Positions 14,519 through 29,796 of a stretch of DNA of 37,076 nt are shown one piece after another. The notes under the pieces are model-generated. The model saw only the letters and a list, made by a program, of their open reading frames with translations. It did no database searches and was not told the origin of the DNA. The translations under genes were made by a program, and so were the position numbers. Within the stretch, counting starts at the first letter, position 1; the number at the start of each line of letters is the position of its first letter. This DNA is from a candidate division WOR-3 bacterium (lineage in GTDB: Bacteria > Hydrothermota > Hydrothermia > B15-G9 > WFZT01), in contig JALUEE010000071.1 of NCBI GenBank assembly GCA_027053075.1, positions 1-37,076 of the forward strand. Direction: 5' to 3'.

Positions 14519-14549
14519 TTGATTTCATTTTTTTGAAACATTATACATT
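14519..14549 (+). promoter_or_regulatory. Candidate sigma70-type promoter directly ahead of the amidase ATG
   Basis: TTGATT (14519-14524), 17 nt, then TATACA, with an overlapping alternative -10 TACATT. No SD before the ATG at 14555. Confidence 0.35.
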
Positions 14550-14554
14550 CACCC

Positions 14555-15910
14555 ATGAAAACGCTGGTTTTACAGATACTCATCTCTTTCTGGCTGATCA
14601 GTGTCCCATACGTGCATAATCCTGAGGGTGATTTTCTTCACTACAAGAACGTTGTAAAGGCCCTTCGTCTTCGTTACTCGAGAAAAGGGGCGGAAGTTTT
14701 AATTTCAGGTGGTAAAATAAGGATTTCAAGAAGCGGGAAAATTTACCTCCTTGGGAGATTTTCATTTCTCAAGCTCAATGGTGGTTATCTTGAAGCAAAC
14801 TCCTGGGCCTATTTGCTCTCGAGAGTTTCGAAGGTCTACAATTATTACTGGGATTACAAAAGGAAGGGTTTTATACAATCCCATTATCCGCCCAGTGTGA
14901 AGCTTACAAAGGCTCATAAATATAGGACAAAAGCCGTTTTTGTTTTTTCTCATAACAGGGATTTGAAACCCACTTATTCATTTAAAAGGGGGAAGCTGAA
15001 GTTGAGTTTTCCACGCGGGTTTTTGGTTGTCAATCCTGTTTCACTCAAAAATTCCCTATCCGGTGTAAGAATTATTCACACACTTTCGGGACTCACTATT
15101 ATTTTTGCACTTAAAAAGGGTGTGAAGTACAGTGTTAAAAGGGGAGATAGAAATCTAACGCTGGTGTTGAATATGCCATATAGGTCCACTCCGCGAAAAA
15201 AGTTTAGACTGGGGGAACTGATAGTGGTTGATCCAGGGCATGGCGGAAAAGACCCCGGTGCTATCGGGTATCGTGGGATAAGAGAGAAGGACATAACTCT
15301 TGCCATAGCGAGAGAGGTGAGAAGAATTGCAGAGAAAAGACTTGGTGTAAGGGTGGTTTTAACGAGGGACAGGGACGTGTTTATCCCTCTGTGGGAGCGC
15401 TCAAAGATAGCCAACAGGCTGGGGGCAACCATGTTTATTTCGATACATTGTAATTTCTCAAGAAATCGATACGCTCACGGCCTCGAGACTTACTTCCTTT
15501 CAAATGCCCGCACGAGGTGGGAGAGGGCAGTGGCCGCCCTTGAGAATGCGTCTGTTAAGTACGAGATAAACTACAGGAAGCAATACGGTATGGTCAGGAA
15601 AATCCTCGGAGATATGGCTCAAAACAAGTACTTAAAAGAGTCTCAGGTGCTTGCCGAATACATTCAGGAGTCTGTTGTAAAGAAAACGGGGACTCTGAAT
15701 AGGGGCATCAAGCAAGCTGGATTCTACGTTCTACTTTTCACTCATACACCATCTGTCCTTGTCGAAACAGGTTTTATCTCTAACCCAAAAGAGGCAAAAA
15801 GACTGAAAAGTCGTTGGTACATAAGAAGAATTGCAGAGGGAATTGTTAATGGCATTGCTTTATACTTAAACAAGTATGCAGAGAAGAGTTATTTCAGTGG
15901 AAGGGGATAA
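14555..15910 (+). CDS. N-acetylmuramoyl-L-alanine amidase (Amidase_3, AmiC-like), exported
   Basis: Signal-peptide-like N-terminus; DPGHGGKDPGA, REKDITL, LTRDRD, FISIHCN and SVLVETGFISN motifs. Confidence 0.92.
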   Translation: MKTLVLQILISFWLISVPYVHNPEGDFLHYKNVVKALRLRYSRKGAEVLISGGKIRISRSGKIYLLGRFSFLKLNGGYLEANSWAYLLSRVSKVYNYYWDYKRKGFIQSHYPPSVKLTKAHKYRTKAVFVFSHNRDLKPTYSFKRGKLKLSFPRGFLVVNPVSLKNSLSGVRIIHTLSGLTIIFALKKGVKYSVKRGDRNLTLVLNMPYRSTPRKKFRLGELIVVDPGHGGKDPGAIGYRGIREKDITLAIAREVRRIAEKRLGVRVVLTRDRDVFIPLWERSKIANRLGATMFISIHCNFSRNRYAHGLETYFLSNARTRWERAVAALENASVKYEINYRKQYGMVRKILGDMAQNKYLKESQVLAEYIQESVVKKTGTLNRGIKQAGFYVLLFTHTPSVLVETGFISNPKEAKRLKSRWYIRRIAEGIVNGIALYLNKYAEKSYFSGRG

Positions 15911-18900
15911 TGCAGGAAATTCCGGGATACAAAACCGTTGAAAAAATAGGAGAAGGTCTTAGCGGAGAAGTCTATCTTGCTGAAAAAGATGGGCGTCACT
16001 TCGCTGTTAAAGTCCTAAAAAATGGTTTCCTCTATGAATTGATATCAGAGTACTTCATTCTACAAAGCATAAAGCATCCCAATATTGTCAGGGTTATAAA
16101 CGTCAATGCAGAGGCGGAAAATCCATATGTAGTCTTTGAATATGCGGAAAAAGGAAACTTAATGGACAGAGATTTTTCGAGTGATGTCATGTTCTTCCTG
16201 AAAAAATTCACGTCCGACATCCTGCCTGCTGTGGAAGTGCTCCACTCGCGTGGTATAATTCATGGTGATATTAAACCTTCGAATATCCTTGTGTTTGCTG
16301 ATTACACTTTGAAATTATCTGACCTCGGTGGTTCTGTCCGCTATCTTAAGACCGTTAGTTTTCCTGATTCGACAACACTCACTCTGGAGTACACCTCACC
16401 GGAGGTATTAAGAGGCGAACGGTTGAGTCCACAGTCTGATATTTATTCACTTGGTGTTTTACTTTTTGAGATGCTCACAGGAGAACTTCCTTTTCAAGGC
16501 ACACCCGATGAGGTTATAAACGGACATCTTGTGGGGTCTGTACCTTCTCCCCGAGAGCTCAACCCTGAAATACCGATGAGTGTTGCCAACCTGATCCTTA
16601 AAATGCTCGAAAAATCGCCTCTACAGAGACCTGGAAGTGTGAAAGAAATAATGGAAATTTTGAAGAAAATTGTAGCAAGTCCAGAAACTTCTATTTCCTA
16701 CATATCTTCAAAAGAGATTATTGGCAGAGACAAGGAACTCAGAATAGTGGAAAATCTGTTTAAGAGGATCTTACTGGGTGGTAAAACCGGGAAAAATGTG
16801 ATTATCTTTAGCGGTCCAGAAGGAATTGGAAAGTCTTTTCTTGCTGAAGAAATAGTAAATAGGGCCCATCTATCAGGTATTTTCCCGATAAAACTTGATT
16901 TTAAATCGCACGGTTATGCAGAGACCTTGCGAAAAGCACAGGAGTTCCTAGAAAAATTCTTGAACAGAAAGCTGACCCTTTTTGATGTAAACATAACAAG
17001 GGGGCAGATTATCCAGAATCTGTACGAAGCGATAAAACTTGTTACTACCAGATTCCCCGTGCTCGTTGTAATAGACGAACTGCCTTTAGAAGATAGAGTT
17101 GTCTGGGGGATTGCCTCAGAACTTGCAAGAAAAATCAGAAGGGATAGAGCCGGCATCGTGATATTTTCAAAAGATGGAGCGCCTCAGAGTGTTAGAGAAT
17201 TCGGAAGACTCTATCAGCTTCAGCCCCTCAGCCTGCCTCAGACCCGCTTTTTCCTGAGGTCAGAGTTCCCCGAGTTGCAAGAGACCCTGGTACCAACTAT
17301 CTATGAGTTTACACGTGGAAATCCCAAAAGTATTATTCAAATTGCTCGTTGTCTCATAAATCATGAAGAAAAGAACTGCTTTGTGGCAGAGAAAACTCAG
17401 GGTATAAAAAAGCTGAGAGAGCTTTTAAATGATGAAGAATGGAACATATTAAGGCACATCGCTGTTACCGCCAATCCTGTGGATGTATCCTTTCTTGCGA
17501 ACAGGTTTGAGATAAAAAAGCTTACGGATGTCTTAAATAAGTTGCTCGAAAATGGTGTTGTAGAGAAACATGACAACTATATTTTTGACGAGAACCTCAG
17601 GAATGTGATTTTAAGTGAACCTGAGACCAAAAAGATTGCCAGAGATATTGCAAGACAGTATTCAATATCAGGTTTTCATCATAAAGCCTCGAAGATCCTT
17701 TACAACGTTGGTTTTTACAATCTTTCCTTCAAAGAGATTGAGCCTCTTTTGAGGAGGGCTTTCAGGAAGAGGAATTTTATAAAACTTTATGACATCCTGA
17801 GGTATTATGAAGGGGTTAAGCTGAGTCGGGAACAGAAAAGAAACTTTATTGTGTTATACGCATATACCCTGATAAATCTTGGAATGCATAAACAGGTACT
17901 AAAACTCATTGAGGATAACTATCAGTTTATAAATAAAGCCAGAGCAGATTTTCTAAGAAGTTACGCTTTACGGGAACTCGACTATCCTCCCCAAAAATTA
18001 CTTGAGCTGGTCGAGCAGAATGTTCTTGGTAAAATTAAAGGATTTTTGAAAGACGAAGCCGAGGCTTTTTATATTGACTTGCTATCCAACACCAATATAG
18101 ACGAAGTTAGCTTCATGGAATTAACAGGAAGGTTTTTAAAGAAAACGAGGAAACCTGACCTGAAGGTTAAAATACTGCGTATAACGGGTAATTTTAATTT
18201 CCGCCGTGACAAATTAAGGGAAGCTCTAAGGTATTATAAAGAGGGATTGAAGCTCGCCAAGAAGTTCGATATACACTGGGAAATCCCCAACCTGCTGATG
18301 AATTTCTCGGTTACATCAATGAAAATTCGTGAAATCTCTTTTGAGGAGCATCTGGAGAATCTAAAGAATGTTGTAAGATTCGCAGAAAAACAGGCTAACT
18401 ATCCGGTTCTTGAAGCCGCCTATATTAATCTATTTCTGTACTACCTTTCCTTTAAAAAGTTTGATGAGGCAAAGACAATTTTAGAGAAGCTAAAACTTCT
18501 CGGAGAAACCACTGAGAATTCAACTATATTAGCAGAGTACTATGACAACATGGCATATCTATATTTTGAATCCGACGAATGGGAAAGTGCAGATGAATAT
18601 TTCAATAGGGCCTATTCTTTTTACAGGCAATATGGGGTGCCTCCCCTTACTTTTTACGATAAATATTCTCGCTTTCTTGTGCATAGAGGAGAGTTCAGAA
18701 AGGCCCTGAGAATAATAAGAGAAGCCATCAGTGAATGGAAAAATTACACAAATATCAGTATCTCATCATCTCTCTACAGAAGTCTCCTTGTGGTATTAAG
18801 TGTAGTAACAGAGCGGGATTATTTCTCCAAGTTTCTTAAATTTCTACCTCGGGACGTAGTACAACAGCCTTCTGTGGCTTACTTCATAAATTTTCACAGA

Positions 18901-19371
18901 AGAGATTTTGAATCTGCGCTGAGGGATGTTGATGAGCTGATTAAGGGCTTGACGAGATATGGAAAAGAATTTGGGAGATTGGTTTACATTGAAAAAGCTG
19001 AAGCCCTTTACAATCTTGGGCGTGTGGATGAAGCTGAAGAATTTATAAAAGAGTATATCGAGGCCCAGCCTGAAAATTCTTTCAGGCTGGGCCTCGCATA
19101 TGTCATTATGACAAAAATAAATCTCAAAAAGAATCAATGGGATTCGGCACTGAGATACCTGGATAAGGCAGAAGAAATATTTAATCACCTTGGTGCAAAA
19201 TTCCAGCTTGCCAAGGTTCGCTGCTACAGGACCTATCTCGATGCCATCTTTCAGGAAACAGAGATTGATCCTGAAAAACTGAAAGAATGCCACAGGCTAC
19301 TTAATGAACTGGGGGCCATCAAAACTTTTCATGACATAGAGCTTGAAATTTTAAACGCGGTTGAAAAATAA
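15910..19371 (+). CDS. Ser/Thr protein kinase fused to a P-loop NTPase (AAA_16/STAND-like) and TPR-like repeats
   Basis: Kinase motifs GEGLSG, AVK, HGDIKPSN, SDLG, YTSPE and SDIYSLG; IIGRDKEL, Walker A GPEGIGKS, Walker B VVIDE and GNP; long helical C-terminus with TPR-like repeats (e.g. KAEALYNLGRVDEAEEF). Confidence 0.88.
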   Translation: MQEIPGYKTVEKIGEGLSGEVYLAEKDGRHFAVKVLKNGFLYELISEYFILQSIKHPNIVRVINVNAEAENPYVVFEYAEKGNLMDRDFSSDVMFFLKKFTSDILPAVEVLHSRGIIHGDIKPSNILVFADYTLKLSDLGGSVRYLKTVSFPDSTTLTLEYTSPEVLRGERLSPQSDIYSLGVLLFEMLTGELPFQGTPDEVINGHLVGSVPSPRELNPEIPMSVANLILKMLEKSPLQRPGSVKEIMEILKKIVASPETSISYISSKEIIGRDKELRIVENLFKRILLGGKTGKNVIIFSGPEGIGKSFLAEEIVNRAHLSGIFPIKLDFKSHGYAETLRKAQEFLEKFLNRKLTLFDVNITRGQIIQNLYEAIKLVTTRFPVLVVIDELPLEDRVVWGIASELARKIRRDRAGIVIFSKDGAPQSVREFGRLYQLQPLSLPQTRFFLRSEFPELQETLVPTIYEFTRGNPKSIIQIARCLINHEEKNCFVAEKTQGIKKLRELLNDEEWNILRHIAVTANPVDVSFLANRFEIKKLTDVLNKLLENGVVEKHDNYIFDENLRNVILSEPETKKIARDIARQYSISGFHHKASKILYNVGFYNLSFKEIEPLLRRAFRKRNFIKLYDILRYYEGVKLSREQKRNFIVLYAYTLINLGMHKQVLKLIEDNYQFINKARADFLRSYALRELDYPPQKLLELVEQNVLGKIKGFLKDEAEAFYIDLLSNTNIDEVSFMELTGRFLKKTRKPDLKVKILRITGNFNFRRDKLREALRYYKEGLKLAKKFDIHWEIPNLLMNFSVTSMKIREISFEEHLENLKNVVRFAEKQANYPVLEAAYINLFLYYLSFKKFDEAKTILEKLKLLGETTENSTILAEYYDNMAYLYFESDEWESADEYFNRAYSFYRQYGVPPLTFYDKYSRFLVHRGEFRKALRIIREAISEWKNYTNISISSSLYRSLLVVLSVVTERDYFSKFLKFLPRDVVQQPSVAYFINFHRRDFESALRDVDELIKGLTRYGKEFGRLVYIEKAEALYNLGRVDEAEEFIKEYIEAQPENSFRLGLAYVIMTKINLKKNQWDSALRYLDKAEEIFNHLGAKFQLAKVRCYRTYLDAIFQETEIDPEKLKECHRLLNELGAIKTFHDIELEILNAVEK

Positions 19372-19375
19372 TTAA

Positions 19376-20890
19376 ATGATGGACTCCAGCGATTTTATAG
19401 ACCAGTCTTTAAAGGGGATGAGTGCGAGTTACCTGGGGGTGCTCTACAACGTCTCGGTTATACTCAACTCCACTCTTGACCTGAAAAAAACGCTAAGCTA
19501 TCTGACCGACGTGGTGAAAAACCTCGTAAATACTGAGAGATGCGTCATAGACCTCAAAAAAGAGTGCTGTGGAGTAAAACGGGAAACCTACAATTTTTCT
19601 GAAAACTATATCACCGACCTGAGTGAGACGATTCTAAAAAAGGTTTACGAAACAGGTAAGACGCTGAAGCTCATAGATGCCCAGAATCACAGTGAATTTA
19701 AAAACCGCAAAAGTGTCAAAAGGCTGGGTATAAGGTCAGTTCTCGCTGTTCCCATAAAATGGAAAGAAGAAGTGCTTGGAGTGATTTATATTGACAACAG
19801 GAGAATAGTGAACGCCTTCACAGAACGCGAGCAGGCTTTGCTTGAGGCTATTGCCAATGTGGCATCGGTGGCAATTAGAAATTCTCAAAAATACTCCACG
19901 CTTAACCAGTCTCTTAAAGACATAAAGAGCATCTTGAGCAAGGGTTTCTTTTATACGGATAGATTCCTCGTTGTAAGTGACAAAATGAAGAGGGTGGTGG
20001 ATGAGATTGAGAGGATTAAAGACAAGGATGAGATAAACGTCCTCATCCTCGGTGAGACCGGTGTTGGGAAGGAAGAGGTTGCGAGAGCAATCCATGTGAA
20101 ATCAAAAAGAAGGAATAGGATGTTTAATCCCATTAACTGCCCCAATTTGAAAGAAGAGCTGTTTGAATCCATGATGTTCGGACATAAGAGAGGCTCTTAC
20201 ACGGGCGCAATTAAAGACCACGACGGAAAGATACTTGAAGCCAACGGTGGCACAGTTTTTCTCGATGAGATAGGAGACCTTTCTCCATCCCTTCAGGCAA
20301 AATTTTTGAAGGTCCTTGAAACAGGTGAGATAGAAATAATTGGTGCCAGTAAGCCCGTCAAAGTGGACGTCCGATTTATTTCTGCAACCAATAAAGACAT
20401 AGAGGAAATGGTGGAAAGAGGAGAATTCAGGGAAGACCTCTACTATAGACTCGCTGGCTATATCATAGAAATTCCTCCACTCAGGGAGAGGAAAGAAGAG
20501 ATTATTCCCCTTGCCAACTATTTTCTAAACCTCTATTCTCACGATAGAAATATCAAGGGCTTCACATCGAAGGCAAGGGAGAAGCTTTTGAGTTACGATT
20601 ACCCGGGCAACGTCAGGGAGCTTCGAGATGTGGTTAAAAGGGCAATTGTTCTGTCCGAGGGAGATTTTATAACCGAGAATGATATTGTTTTTGGTCGTAG
20701 AAAAAAGAGGAGCAAGAAAACTTATTTTGATGAAAATATTAGCCTCAAAGAACTCGAGAAAGTCCATATACTCCAGGTGCTTGAAAAAACAAACTGGAGT
20801 ATGGCAAAAACTGCAGAAATACTTGGAATTACGAGGCAAACACTGAGAAATAAGATTAAGGAATACGGCCTTGATAAATTCAGGAAGTGA
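19376..20890 (+). CDS. GAF domain-sigma54 activator (AAA+)-Fis HTH transcriptional regulator
   Basis: GAF-like SVLAVPI..LGVIYIDN..FTERE; Walker A GETGVGKE, loop GSYTGA, Walker B FLDEIG, FREDLYYRL, PGNVREL; HTH TAEILGITRQTL. Confidence 0.92.
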   Translation: MMDSSDFIDQSLKGMSASYLGVLYNVSVILNSTLDLKKTLSYLTDVVKNLVNTERCVIDLKKECCGVKRETYNFSENYITDLSETILKKVYETGKTLKLIDAQNHSEFKNRKSVKRLGIRSVLAVPIKWKEEVLGVIYIDNRRIVNAFTEREQALLEAIANVASVAIRNSQKYSTLNQSLKDIKSILSKGFFYTDRFLVVSDKMKRVVDEIERIKDKDEINVLILGETGVGKEEVARAIHVKSKRRNRMFNPINCPNLKEELFESMMFGHKRGSYTGAIKDHDGKILEANGGTVFLDEIGDLSPSLQAKFLKVLETGEIEIIGASKPVKVDVRFISATNKDIEEMVERGEFREDLYYRLAGYIIEIPPLRERKEEIIPLANYFLNLYSHDRNIKGFTSKAREKLLSYDYPGNVRELRDVVKRAIVLSEGDFITENDIVFGRRKKRSKKTYFDENISLKELEKVHILQVLEKTNWSMAKTAEILGITRQTLRNKIKEYGLDKFRK

Positions 20891-27108: not shown

Positions 27109-28568
27109 AAGTTTTTTACATGTCGTCTGAGATATATCCCTATGCTAAAACAGGGGGATTGGCCGATGTTGCCGGCACACTTCCCCTGAGTCTCAAAAAA
27201 CTGGGAGTCGAGATTATCCTCGCAATGCCCTATTACAATAGGTTCGTTGAAAAACACAACCCTGAGAATACCGGAATCGTGCTGGACGTGGAATTCAACG
27301 GGATTACCTACAAAACTCCGATCTATAAAAAGGAAAACAAAGACGTTACCACCTACTTCATCAAAAACGACCAGTTCTTCAATAGAGAGTATCTCTACGG
27401 AACTCCTGAAGGCGATTACCCTGATAACCCACTCAGATTCGGCTTTTTTAACGTAGCATCCCTGAGACTTCTTGAAAAATTGAATTTTAAACCGGCTATA
27501 ATCCATCTAAATGACTGGCAAACAGCCCTTGTCCCTGTTTACCTTAAAAACACGAATCTTTTCCCATTTCTAAAGGATACGAAAACCATTATAACAATTC
27601 ACAATCTTGCCTATCAGGGCACCTTTGATCCCAAATTTTTGAAAGACCTGATGCTCCCTGAATCTCTATTCAACATGGAGGCCATGGAATTTTATGGAAA
27701 AATCAACTTTTTAAAAGGCGGAATAGTTTTCTCCGACGTCATCACAACTGTCAGCCCTACCTATGCACGGGAAATTCAAACCCCGGAGTATGGGTATGGA
27801 CTCGAAGGAGTGCTTTACAAGAGAAGGGAGCATATTTATGGGATTTTAAACGGCATTGATTACGATGTATGGAATCCGGAAAACGATGAAAATATTTACT
27901 ACACGTACTCAGTCGAAGACTTCCATTACAAGAAAATGCTGAACAAAACCCACCTTCAGGAAGATGTGGGCCTCCCGGCAGATTCTGAGAAACCTTTGAT
28001 TGGCATGGTTTCAAGGCTCGCAGCTCAAAAAGGGCTTGACCTCCTTGCAGATGCTATGAAAGAGCTCTCAAATATGGACCTTCAGATGGTTATACTTGGG
28101 ACAGGCGATAAAATTTATCAGGACCTTCTCTCTGATTTTGGGACCAAATTCCCTGACAAATTCGCCGTTAAAATTGCATTTGATCCGGTGCTTGCAAGAA
28201 GAATTTACGCTGGTTCTGACATGTTTCTCATGCCATCAAGGTATGAGCCATGCGGGCTTGGCCAGATGATTGCAATGCGGTACGGAACTATTCCTGTAGT
28301 GAGAAAAACAGGTGGCCTTGCTGATACTGTCGAGGATTTCACCTATGAAAAGCTAAAGCGTGATCCTGGAAAACGTAAGGGATACGGTTTTAGCTTCACT
28401 ACATACACTCATGCCAACCTGATAGATGCCATTAAACGGGCACTCAAGATTTATACGGATAAAGAGACGTGGAACCAGCTTGTAAAAATTGCCATGACAC
28501 GTGATTTTTCTTGGAAAAGCTCGGCAAGGGAGTATATCGCGCTTTACGAAAAGGTCATGTACATGTAA
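27105..28568 (+). CDS. glgA: Glycogen synthase (GT5)
   Basis: SEIYPYAKTGGLADV, HLNDWQT, TIHNLAYQG, TTVSPTYA, GILNGID and PSRYEPCGL motifs. Confidence 0.95.
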   Translation: MKVFYMSSEIYPYAKTGGLADVAGTLPLSLKKLGVEIILAMPYYNRFVEKHNPENTGIVLDVEFNGITYKTPIYKKENKDVTTYFIKNDQFFNREYLYGTPEGDYPDNPLRFGFFNVASLRLLEKLNFKPAIIHLNDWQTALVPVYLKNTNLFPFLKDTKTIITIHNLAYQGTFDPKFLKDLMLPESLFNMEAMEFYGKINFLKGGIVFSDVITTVSPTYAREIQTPEYGYGLEGVLYKRREHIYGILNGIDYDVWNPENDENIYYTYSVEDFHYKKMLNKTHLQEDVGLPADSEKPLIGMVSRLAAQKGLDLLADAMKELSNMDLQMVILGTGDKIYQDLLSDFGTKFPDKFAVKIAFDPVLARRIYAGSDMFLMPSRYEPCGLGQMIAMRYGTIPVVRKTGGLADTVEDFTYEKLKRDPGKRKGYGFSFTTYTHANLIDAIKRALKIYTDKETWNQLVKIAMTRDFSWKSSAREYIALYEKVMYM

Positions 28569-28578
28569 GGAGGCCGAA

Positions 28579-29796
28579 ATGAAGAAACTGTTTATCCTTT
28601 TATTTGTCACGGGCCTGTTATCGGCCCAGTTTGCACCTGATACGACTAACTCCGTGGGTGGCGGGCTTGGTATGGCAGTGATTGATGGCAACCCTTATTT
28701 CACCTTAAATCTTGCAACCGAATTACATTTTGGAAAGTTTGGACTTGGCCTGAATATCCCACTGCTTTACAGCCCAAAAGAAGGGATTAGAAAAGAGGAC
28801 TGGAACTCTAAAAGAGATTACGCAAGAATAATATCCTATGTGAGATACGGATACAAAGGTGATCCGTTCTACATAAGAATCGGCGCACTCTCCCATACGA
28901 CGCTCGGGCACGGTTTTCTTGTTTACAACTACAATAATCGGATACGCGAAGACGAAGTAAAAGTGGGGGCTGAACTTTATGTTGACAGGGGATTCTTTGG
29001 ATTTGAAGGATTTAACAGTGACTTCGGTAGACTTGGATTGATGGGAATAAGGGGATTTGTGCGGCCATTTAAGAACGTCCCTATTGCAGGTAGATTGCAG
29101 TTTGGCGGAAGCTTTGTCCGTGACTTTGATCCAGATGAGAGAGAGGCCACACACGACGGTATCTCCGCTTTGGGGCTTGATGCCGGTTTCCCTATATTCC
29201 AGTACTCTCTTTTAAGTTCCACGGTTTACGCTGACTATGGGACCATCGTTAAGCACGGACACGGATTTGCAGAGGGGATTATCTTCAGCTTGAACGGCAT
29301 TGGAATCTTTGACCTTGGAGTAAAACTTGAGGAAAGGCAACTATCCCCACATTTCACGCCTGCATATTTCAACTCGATGTATGAAGTTGATAAACCATAC
29401 AAAGAGGCGAAGCTTGACAGCATCACTCAAAAGGTTGACGGCACATTTGGTGAACTTTACGGTGAAGCCCTGGGGAAGCTGAGAGTCTCTGGAAATTACT
29501 TCCACAAGAAAAATGTTAAAAACAGTGGGGTTCTAAATATTCTTGCCACCACTGGTGATATGTTCCCTGTCTTCACTCTGAACTGGCGGTACTACAAAGA
29601 CCAGATAGAGACCATGAAAGATGTCTTTACCATCAATGACCGGTCCATTCTTTTCACGGAAATTGGCTACAGGCTAAACCCATACATGACCGTGTTCACA
29701 GTAATTAAAAGAACTTATCGTTATGACGAAGAGACGGGTAAATATAAGCCCACAGACCGCTACGGTGTCAGGGTAGAATTTAACTGGCATTTTTAA
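28579..29796 (+). CDS. Hypothetical exported protein, probable outer-membrane beta-barrel
   Basis: SD AAGGAGG, signal peptide MKKLFILLFVTGLLSA|Q, Gly/aromatic-rich alternating strands, C-terminal YGVRVEFNWHF ending in Phe. Confidence 0.7.
   Translation: MKKLFILLFVTGLLSAQFAPDTTNSVGGGLGMAVIDGNPYFTLNLATELHFGKFGLGLNIPLLYSPKEGIRKEDWNSKRDYARIISYVRYGYKGDPFYIRIGALSHTTLGHGFLVYNYNNRIREDEVKVGAELYVDRGFFGFEGFNSDFGRLGLMGIRGFVRPFKNVPIAGRLQFGGSFVRDFDPDEREATHDGISALGLDAGFPIFQYSLLSSTVYADYGTIVKHGHGFAEGIIFSLNGIGIFDLGVKLEERQLSPHFTPAYFNSMYEVDKPYKEAKLDSITQKVDGTFGELYGEALGKLRVSGNYFHKKNVKNSGVLNILATTGDMFPVFTLNWRYYKDQIETMKDVFTINDRSILFTEIGYRLNPYMTVFTVIKRTYRYDEETGKYKPTDRYGVRVEFNWHF

Follow-up and report, generated by a model that had tools for sequence, protein, structure and literature searches.

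A split kinase-STAND and GAF-sigma54 activator gene pair behind a housekeeping amidase gene in a candidate division WOR-3 bacterium

Three closely spaced genes lie on the forward strand of a 37,076-nucleotide contig from a candidate division WOR-3 bacterium (JALUEE010000071.1, contig C71 of genome G000; the window, which denotes this whole stretch of DNA). They encode an N-acetylmuramoyl-L-alanine amidase, a protein joining a Ser/Thr kinase domain to a STAND NTPase and a TPR-like sensor region, and an activator of sigma54-dependent transcription with an N-terminal GAF domain (Table 1). The genome, of 2.44 Mb with 44% GC and 95% completeness, was compared with 40 relatives, a class set of 64 genomes and a wider phylum set of 272 genomes; "the genus" below means that of the window genome, represented by six genomes (G000-G005). 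A first-pass annotation of the sequence had read the three genes as a candidate undescribed, envelope-linked signalling system. The comparisons lead to a narrower conclusion, in which the kinase-STAND-TPR gene and the activator gene match, by alignment and domain order, the two halves of a fused single-chain regulator. The pair is a split variant of a kinase-STAND-sigma54 regulator that is widespread and apparently unstudied, and a housekeeping amidase gene leads the likely operon.

Table 1. Coordinates of the features of the three-gene unit (window positions)
Feature	Position	Strand	Basis and details
Predicted leaderless sigma70-type promoter	14519..14547	+	-35 TTGATT 14519-24, 17 nt, -10 TATACA 14542-47, 7 nt to amidase ATG
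Amidase open reading frame, 451 aa	14555..15910	+	Amidase_3, residues 223-435
Kinase Shine-Dalgarno sequence and TAATG overlap	15903..15912	+	GGGGA 15903-07; stop TAA 15908-10, ATG 15910-12
Kinase-STAND-TPR open reading frame, 1153 aa	15910..19371	+	Pfam, open reading frame call
Hanks-type Ser/Thr kinase domain	15928..16653	+	Pkinase residues 7-248, E 1.2e-48; Foldseek PknB matches
STAND NTPase module	16717..17340	+	AAA_16 270-395, ATPase_2 273-477; IIGRDKE270, GPEGIGKS302, VVIDE386, GxP at 470
Helical TPR-like sensor region, about residues 600-1153	17707..19371	+	TPR_12/TPR_MalT/TPR_14 in 829-1058; AlphaFold helices
Kinase/activator junction (probable fission point)	19369..19381	+	Stop TAA, 7 nt, ATG 19379; second TAA, activator frame, 19373-75
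Activator open reading frame, 504 aa from first in-frame ATG	19376..20890	+	Conserved start = second ATG, 19379
GAF - sigma54 AAA+ - Fis-type helix-turn-helix enhancer-binding protein	19379..20890	+	Pfam, alignment, AlphaFold pLDDT 77.7, Foldseek

The first-pass description of the second protein as a kinase with a Walker A/B NTPase, a TPR-like sensor and no obvious transmembrane (TM) segment is borne out by Pfam, hydropathy and AlphaFold, with profile and structure prediction across 15910-19371 recovering kinase, STAND and TPR parts alike. The Hanks-type Ser/Thr kinase motif set is complete, comprising the Gly loop (GEGLSG14), the VAVK lysine (K34), the alphaC Glu (E47), HxDxKxxN (HGDIKPSN118), DxG (DLG138) and xPE (SPE163), of which G14-E15-G16, K34, E47, HGDIKPSN, D138 and P164-E165 are invariant in all seven orthologues; the catalytic loop HGDIKPSN is of the non-RD type. 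The adjoining module has the hallmarks of STAND NTPases, namely hhGRExE (IIGRDKE), Walker A (GPEGIGKS), Walker B (VVIDE) and GxP (GNP) motifs, all conserved among the orthologues, together with a winged helix and superstructure-forming repeats, while the sensor region holds the conserved patches WEIPxLLxN790 and AEKQxNxP825. The AlphaFold model, built on seven sequences (mean predicted local distance difference test score (pLDDT) 75, predicted template modelling score 0.57), has soluble domains throughout, consisting of a kinase, a P-loop and a helical/winged-helix part followed by about 25 TPR helices; pLDDT is mostly 80-95 in the TPR part and below 50 in the activation segment. The best Foldseek match is 6mfv, a STAND protein with a TPR sensor (E 1.1e-12); a long TPR chain of no relation and PknB structures come next, and Avs3 (8dgc) is weaker (E 1.1e-8, query TM-score 0.17). 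The most hydrophobic 19-residue stretch (mean 1.56) falls within TPR helices, leaving no clear TM segment, Pfam finds no PASTA domain and the model NF033483 scores 166/450 on the kinase domain only. A search of the ESM Atlas returned generic AAA-TPR clusters only, a kinase-alignment search of the genome contigs generic kinases only, and a profile search of 1.84 billion representatives was dominated by kinase-domain matches.

In the activator Pfam places GAF at residues 35-167, Sigma54_activat at 201-363 (E 2.5e-61), an AAA lid and HTH_8 at 457-497, and detects no receiver domain, in agreement with the first-pass reading. The Walker A/B motifs, sensor II and arginine-finger region needed by the AAA+ part of a sigma54 activator are present, with the motifs GETGVGKE, GSYTGA, FLDEIG and GNVREL, and the AlphaFold model is laid out as GAF, coiled linker, AAA+ and helix-turn-helix, with Foldseek matches to sigma54-activator structures such as 1ojl, 1ny5 and FleQ. 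The loop that reads GSYTGA in G000 and G004 is GAFTGA in three and GSFTGA in one of the other four orthologues; working variants given in the available part of one source include GSFTGA and GAYTGA, its list there being without the double variant GSYTGA (PMC6615313). The protein scores below every NCBIfam equivalog cut-off (nifA, the best model, 358/529, NorR 300/476 and ntrC 248/559 bits). The genome supplies what such an activator requires, that is rpoN, for which the first-pass annotation had called for a search and which lies on contig C47 (E 4.9e-43), and -24/-12 promoters that are conserved in relatives; eight sigma54-activator domains are found in G000 at E < 1e-46.

Fused Pkinase-P-loop/TPR-GAF-Sigma54_activat-HTH_8 proteins of 1566-1706 amino acids (aa) are encoded by G006, which belongs to the same order, and by G034, G030 and G025 of the same class. 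By hhalign the kinase alignment matches the G006 fused protein from residues 12 to 1152 (1041 columns, E 1.2e-51) and the activator matches its residues 1218-1696, such that the domains of the pair are collinear with members of the fused family while being encoded as two open reading frames in all six genus genomes. This collinearity and the fixed 7-nucleotide (nt) spacing between the two genes bear out the earlier proposal that the kinase-STAND-TPR protein and the activator belong together. Among longer homologues of the activator, 105 of the best 120 have an N-terminal kinase in the same chain; the search spanned 883-2520 aa only and gives no fused-to-split ratio. The catalytic loop in these 120 proteins is HRD in 71 and HGD in 6, with no regular-expression match in 26. 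Likewise, 12 of the best 15 non-genus GAF matches in the phylum set lie within frames of 1652-1710 aa, the other three being two that are cut by contig ends and one in a gene broken in its STAND region (G250).

The split is real and no sequencing error, since all six genomes keep it with the 7-nt spacing and under purifying selection. An assembly error, a pseudogenising frameshift or a break bridged by recoding would fit the position of the activator frame, which is +1 to the kinase frame and close behind it, the dominance of the fused form among relatives and the break within the STAND region of the G250 gene, but is extremely improbable given that the same junction recurs in genomes whose kinases are 45-95% identical as a set and that seven independent database entries of the kinase protein end at 1152-1160 aa. 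Between G000 and G004 the ratio of nonsynonymous to synonymous substitution rates (dN/dS) is 0.10 for the kinase gene and 0.01 for the activator gene, synonymous divergence being saturated for more distant genome pairs. Programmed frameshifting or readthrough at the junction was rejected, with a stop in the activator frame in four of the six genomes and tandem stops (TAA TAG, kinase frame) in the other two. The kinase gene is divided over two contigs in G002 and G003, and the amidase gene is cut by a contig end in G001.

Split kinase-STAND-TPR and GAF-activator pairs are also found in G250, G177, G110 and G130 (two), and the trees indicate several origins of split forms within the phylum, because a single clade of the seven tested split activators is rejected (approximately unbiased test, p-AU 1e-29) and the G250 and G177 splits stand beside fused proteins in both trees (SH-like approximate likelihood ratio support 97-100). 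The activator tree was a quick LG+G4 tree of 36 rows from which the long-branch row solo_G006 was left out. For the genus itself, fission of a fused gene is the likely origin on these comparisons. Two results weigh against it, namely that the genus activator groups with the fused proteins of class-mates at a support of 57 only and that a placement with stand-alone GAF activators pairing with small PEGA kinases is retained at p-AU 0.23. Re-pairing of two separate genes could thus have occurred in this genus instead of fission. A split pair in G247 stands in the opposite gene order and has a GGDEF domain in its activator, a loose pairing that weighs against a single common switch. P0135, a distant kinase-STAND-TPR protein of 1147 aa that stands alone, groups with the kinases of the genus (support 98), and a metagenome scan with P0135 found nothing. 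The split activators of G110 and G130 carry a GGDEF insert; GAF-GGDEF-sigma54 activators paired with kinase-STAND-TPR genes were also observed at L212, L213, L216 and L217, joining cyclic di-GMP synthesis to the switch.

The order amidase-kinase-activator is kept in all six genus genomes while the outer flanks vary, and the predicted amidase promoter has the same geometry (TTGATT-17-TATAxx-7-ATG) in all five in which this stretch is assembled. The corresponding regular expression matches 20 of 1476 ATG genes of G000, with a rate of 0.0018 in shuffled sequence; a general sigma70 scan missed the amidase promoter and returned counts at chance level (16 vs 16.7). Since this promoter is conserved and no terminator-like site is seen on the + strand within the unit, a single leaderless transcript of all three genes is likely. 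The co-transcription suggested in the first-pass annotation thus stands as the likely case, and the TAATG stop/start overlap at 15908-15912 is indeed present in the sequence. The overlap is not conserved, the spacing between amidase and kinase being -1, -1, 6, 18, 14 and 7 nt in the six genomes, with overlap in two of them and a GGGGA Shine-Dalgarno sequence of its own before the kinase gene in all. The 4-nt gap without a Shine-Dalgarno sequence that had been noted before the activator holds for the first ATG and not for the conserved start, which lies exactly 7 nt behind the kinase stop in 6/6 genomes.

The amidase is of the AmiA/B/C type (Amidase_3, E 4e-55; best NCBIfam model AmiA, below its cut-off), single-copy in each genus genome, present in 40 of 41 genomes searched and under purifying selection (dN/dS 0.07, G000 vs G004). 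Its hydrophobic N-terminus is consistent with export, and the kinase protein is cytoplasmic. The neighbourhood search called for by the first-pass annotation confines the amidase linkage to this genus; neither kinase nor activator stands beside the amidase in any of the 24 loci retrieved from outside the genus, where 34 genomes had a match and each locus covered about 1.5 kb on either side. Of these 24 loci 14 have murI and 11 smpB, and of 25 loci surrounding fused proteins or other split pairs none has an amidase. In sister families the place next to the amidase belongs to murI, where this genus has the pair, and murI was not found above cut-off in the five genus genomes searched (G000, G001, G002, G003 and G005), which would imply another source of D-glutamate in the genus. 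A MalT-like STAND regulator (family f11; L084:2267-3673 and L088:2305-3669, in G038 and G025) follows the amidase in two of the 24 outside loci. The amidase is thus an ordinary housekeeping enzyme and the trio a genus-level gene order with shared transcription, for which a functional link is possible but unsupported.

The amidase has nonetheless to be weighed as a working third member, in which muropeptides or envelope damage would be sensed by the TPR region and answered through sigma54. Such a system would agree with a gene order that persists despite changing flanks, with the conserved shared promoter, with the f11 regulators behind the amidase and with the sigma54 promoters near related kinase-activator genes, which often drive exported proteins with tails of the type IX secretion system (T9SS) or FlgD type. 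It is nevertheless improbable in view of the empty counts outside the genus (0/24 and 0/25), the sole housekeeping copy of the amidase, the kinase without TM or PASTA-type domain and an overlap that is not conserved. The same evidence goes against the three-part envelope system of the first-pass annotation and against its suggestion of a muropeptide signal, the amidase being likely exported and the kinase cytoplasmic.

On the combined sequence evidence, the favoured reading, at somewhat better than an even chance, is that the STAND-gated kinase acts in the cytoplasm and phosphorylates its cognate GAF activator, thereby controlling it in trans. STAND proteins such as MalT and NLRs rest in a closed ADP state and oligomerise upon ligand binding and ATP exchange. 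By analogy, the TPR/arm would keep the ADP-bound STAND module closed at rest until a cytoplasmic ligand opened it, and ATP exchange would drive oligomerisation, bringing the non-RD kinase domains together and switching them on. The kinase would then bind and phosphorylate the activator, for which the invariant GAF serines S83, S113 and S121 are candidate sites, relieving inhibition of the AAA+ ring by the GAF domain, and the activator would start transcription from sigma54 promoters at other places in the genome. Phosphorylation is suggested because the kinase is invariant, the ancestry appears to be fused, a second kinase-GAF activator pairing exists in the phylum and the GAF serines are conserved (99-100% in 106 long homologues). 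A precedent in the available part of the source is the Ser/Thr kinase PknK, which phosphorylates VirS, PrrA and MtrA (PMC9045387). Several observations speak against this reading: the activator has no FHA domain by Pfam, unlike the activator of G226, and so is without a dedicated phospho-reader; the conserved serines may be structural, the 106 homologues having been chosen by likeness to the query; and the Walker B motif VVIDE is atypical.

The pair might alternatively work by binding only, with the TPR end gripping the GAF domain in the way expected of the fused chain and the kinase phosphorylating itself or other proteins. Control by stoichiometric binding is familiar from NifL/NifA and PspA/PspF. 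The fixed 7-nt junction, which suggests 1:1 coupled translation, the direct adjacency of TPR and GAF in the fused relatives, the missing FHA domain and the similar conservation of GAF and AAA across the genus (73% and 76-80%) would all accord with it. This reading is rated unlikely, given the kinase motifs that are invariant in 7/7 orthologues, the kinase that is kept in most of the long homologues and the second kinase-GAF activator pairing, common in the phylum without STAND or TPR, in which the kinase is the shared link.

A third alternative is an Avs/NLR-like phage sensor with a kinase and a sigma54 transcriptional response as its output, in line with the phage-protein sensing offered in the first-pass annotation. 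The STAND and TPR architecture, the Foldseek match to Avs3, the non-RD kinase loop and the faster divergence of the kinase protein (45-49% identity across the genus, against 71-75% for the activator) would be in keeping with such a sensor. Its probability is judged very low, as the gene is stable and single-copy amid housekeeping genes in 6/6 genomes, with no defence island, and PADLOC gives no full-length match to a defence model, its matches being limited to the AAA/HTH part and to the kinase domain at about residues 4-270. The TPR region is under purifying selection at a dN/dS of 0.04-0.11, no higher than the 0.17 of the kinase domain, and defence and non-defence STAND clades are interspersed, according to the part of the source available (PMC13581612).

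The targets of the activator would lie away from the window. No -24/-12 site is found in the window, nor in the intergenic DNA of seven genus loci, and therefore no local target or autoregulation is indicated. TGGCA-N6-TTGC occurs at 52 sites in G000 against 13-18 in three shuffles, with about ten intergenic sigma54 promoters, and enhancers were compared among G000, G001, G002, G003 and G005. TTGCAA-W-TTGCAA precedes pilA, pointing to a PilR-like activator, TGTAAA-N5-TTTACA precedes lipB-aco, pointing to a PAS activator, and the palindrome TTCGACAA adjoins a response regulator. TGTAAC-N5/6-GTTACA lies before genes of exported lipoproteins and occurs with a promoter in 3/272 genomes, all of this genus; it more likely belongs to a 303-322-aa activator. 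It was dropped as the site of the activator studied here because in G003 similar sites immediately follow 303-309-aa activators, and because G002, G004 and G005, which keep the activator, yielded no exact site with a promoter. Two to three TGTAACA-N3-TGTTACA palindromes were also observed before a sigma54 promoter at G000:C17:36207-36983 (L235), G001:C1 and G003:C15 and C137; three of these four promoters drive exported lipoproteins, and in G000 TPR-only genes follow.

The remaining class, TGG(T/G)AAA-N3-TTT(A/C)CCA-like, precedes short GGA-rich tracts without open reading frames in G000, G005 and G002, and in the class set occurs with a promoter in 3/64 genomes, all of this genus, against none for a reversed control. 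The pattern was built from the G000 and G005 sites, and its match in G001 adjoins a response-regulator cassette. Its assignment to this activator, by elimination, is tentative, the chances being rather against it. A 329-aa activator and the PAS activator are likewise present in all genus genomes, so that target assignment is not unique, a further point against the proposed circuit. By elimination only, GGA-rich non-coding RNAs or exported lipoproteins behind genus-specific sigma54 promoters could be targets. Sigma54 promoters without a conserved open reading frame were seen at G000:C65:413, C21:50403 and C90:33474, at L272, L314 and L315 of G005 and at L301/L438 of G002; the tracts behind them hold repeated GCAGGAGGG-like motifs, some with a strong terminal hairpin (z about -4, two G005 tracts), look like CsrB/RsmZ-type small RNAs and are found in this genus only. 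No csrA was found in G000, and no Rfam match at gathering score was found for the tracts. A bolder scheme, made of two genes and free of His-Asp relay, would have an NLR-like STAND receptor oligomerise on a cytoplasmic ligand derived from the cell wall, phosphorylate the GAF domain via the non-RD kinase and drive the GGA-repeat small RNAs, the amidase link and the missing murI tying it to peptidoglycan status; it is a long shot.

Of 22 loci elsewhere that hold fused or split relatives, five have an intergenic sigma54 promoter, and the two targets checked near relatives are exported proteins with FlgD/T9SS-type tails. A protein of about 123 aa without a Pfam match (G000:C55:11129-11548, L236) has a sigma54 promoter with the pilA-type enhancer and is conserved in G001. 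A 29-bp element that is near identical in four genus genomes (L310, L303, L324 and L320) lies upstream of a minor pilin gene; it resembles a chromosomal dif site and was dropped as an enhancer.

The neighbours of the trio are housekeeping genes by Pfam, with the mra/mur cluster, nth, cinA and adenine deaminase on the 5′ side and nicotinate phosphoribosyltransferase, rml genes, glyQS and polA on the 3′ side. Overlapping genes are common locally (12/17 adjacent same-strand pairs in this part of the window, by longest-open-reading-frame starts). A transposase helix-turn-helix fragment of IS630-like type lies at the contig end (36479-36916), and a 431-aa open reading frame without a Pfam match follows the glycogen synthase gene (28501-29796). 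Other kinase-linked genes include an arrangement widespread in the phylum (L188-L195, L227 and L229-L231), in which a GAF-sigma54 activator gene precedes a Ser/Thr kinase gene, often with a gene of about 320 aa in front and often with a sigma54 promoter behind that serves an exported protein; the 320-aa product had no Pfam match in 3/3 tested and the kinase a C-terminal PEGA domain in 3/3 scanned. In one genome only, rpoN is convergent to the activator gene and ends 13 nt away (L028:5160-8061, G002:C29). G000 also encodes an 894-aa fusion of a Ser/Thr kinase to a UvrD/REP helicase (G000:C17:25978-28662, L245), with kinase frames of similar length in many class genomes, and a class III-type lanthipeptide synthetase (RamC_N, kinase, LANC_like) with a transporter-like gene behind it (G000:C78:90975-93575, L246).

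The term "undescribed" in the first-pass annotation holds for the literature searched and fails for the databases, in which the architecture is common. Studholme and Dixon are said to have mentioned a kinase-bearing activator in Pirellula in 2004. The available part of one survey lists kinase-TPR-GGDEF and kinase-GAF-HisK, and the word "sigma" does not occur there (PMC1262709); a literature search for the architecture found no description, with subscription journals or supplements, such as the STAND clade tables of PMC13581612, being places that may hold one. Known controls of sigma54 activators are receiver phosphorylation, small ligands and protein partners. A large family in the databases, on which no study was found, implies a further mode in which a STAND-gated Ser/Thr kinase exerts the control. 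The repeated splits about the TPR/GAF boundary suggest that the halves can communicate in trans, and a natural split with a fixed junction provides two separately expressible proteins, so that phosphorylation or binding of the activator by the kinase becomes a simple in vitro question. The weak envelope link and the common architecture limit the significance of the system.

The closest known relatives are the fused proteins of WOR-3, TA06, Gemmatimonadota and Acidobacteriota, annotated as "sigma 54-interacting transcriptional regulator", which have the same domains in the same order, whereas the pair here consists of two genes with a non-RD HGD loop, lacks an adjacent sigma54 target and is transcribed behind an amidase gene. 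The activator shares its GAF-AAA+-HTH layout with NifA, NorR, FhlA and Aquifex Nlh1, its GAF domain matching that of Nlh1 (E 1e-6), but falls below the family cut-offs, has a kinase-STAND protein as its partner and carries the GSYTGA loop. The STAND NTPases with TPR (6mfv, MalT and Avs3) have Walker A/B, the GxP motif, a helical arm and TPR in common with the kinase protein, which, by contrast, has a Hanks kinase as its N-terminal effector and a separate sigma54 activator as its output. Muropeptide-sensing kinases such as PknB and Stk1 have a TM helix and extracellular PASTA repeats, unlike the kinase here, which has neither PASTA nor a clear TM segment, and in contrast to Avs and other bacterial NLRs it has neither a full-length defence-model match nor a defence-island context. 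Mycobacterium tuberculosis PknK has a STAND/MalT-like C-terminus. The cyanobacterial dual kinases HstK and Pkn41 run from a Ser/Thr kinase domain to GAF-HisKA, in the available part of the source (PMC2176072). The kinase here resembles HstK/Pkn41 and PknK as a cytoplasmic Ser/Thr kinase with a long middle part, HstK/Pkn41 having a GAF-led output and PknK phosphorylating transcription regulators, and differs from them in that its output is a sigma54 AAA+ activator rather than a histidine kinase or a sigma70-type regulator.

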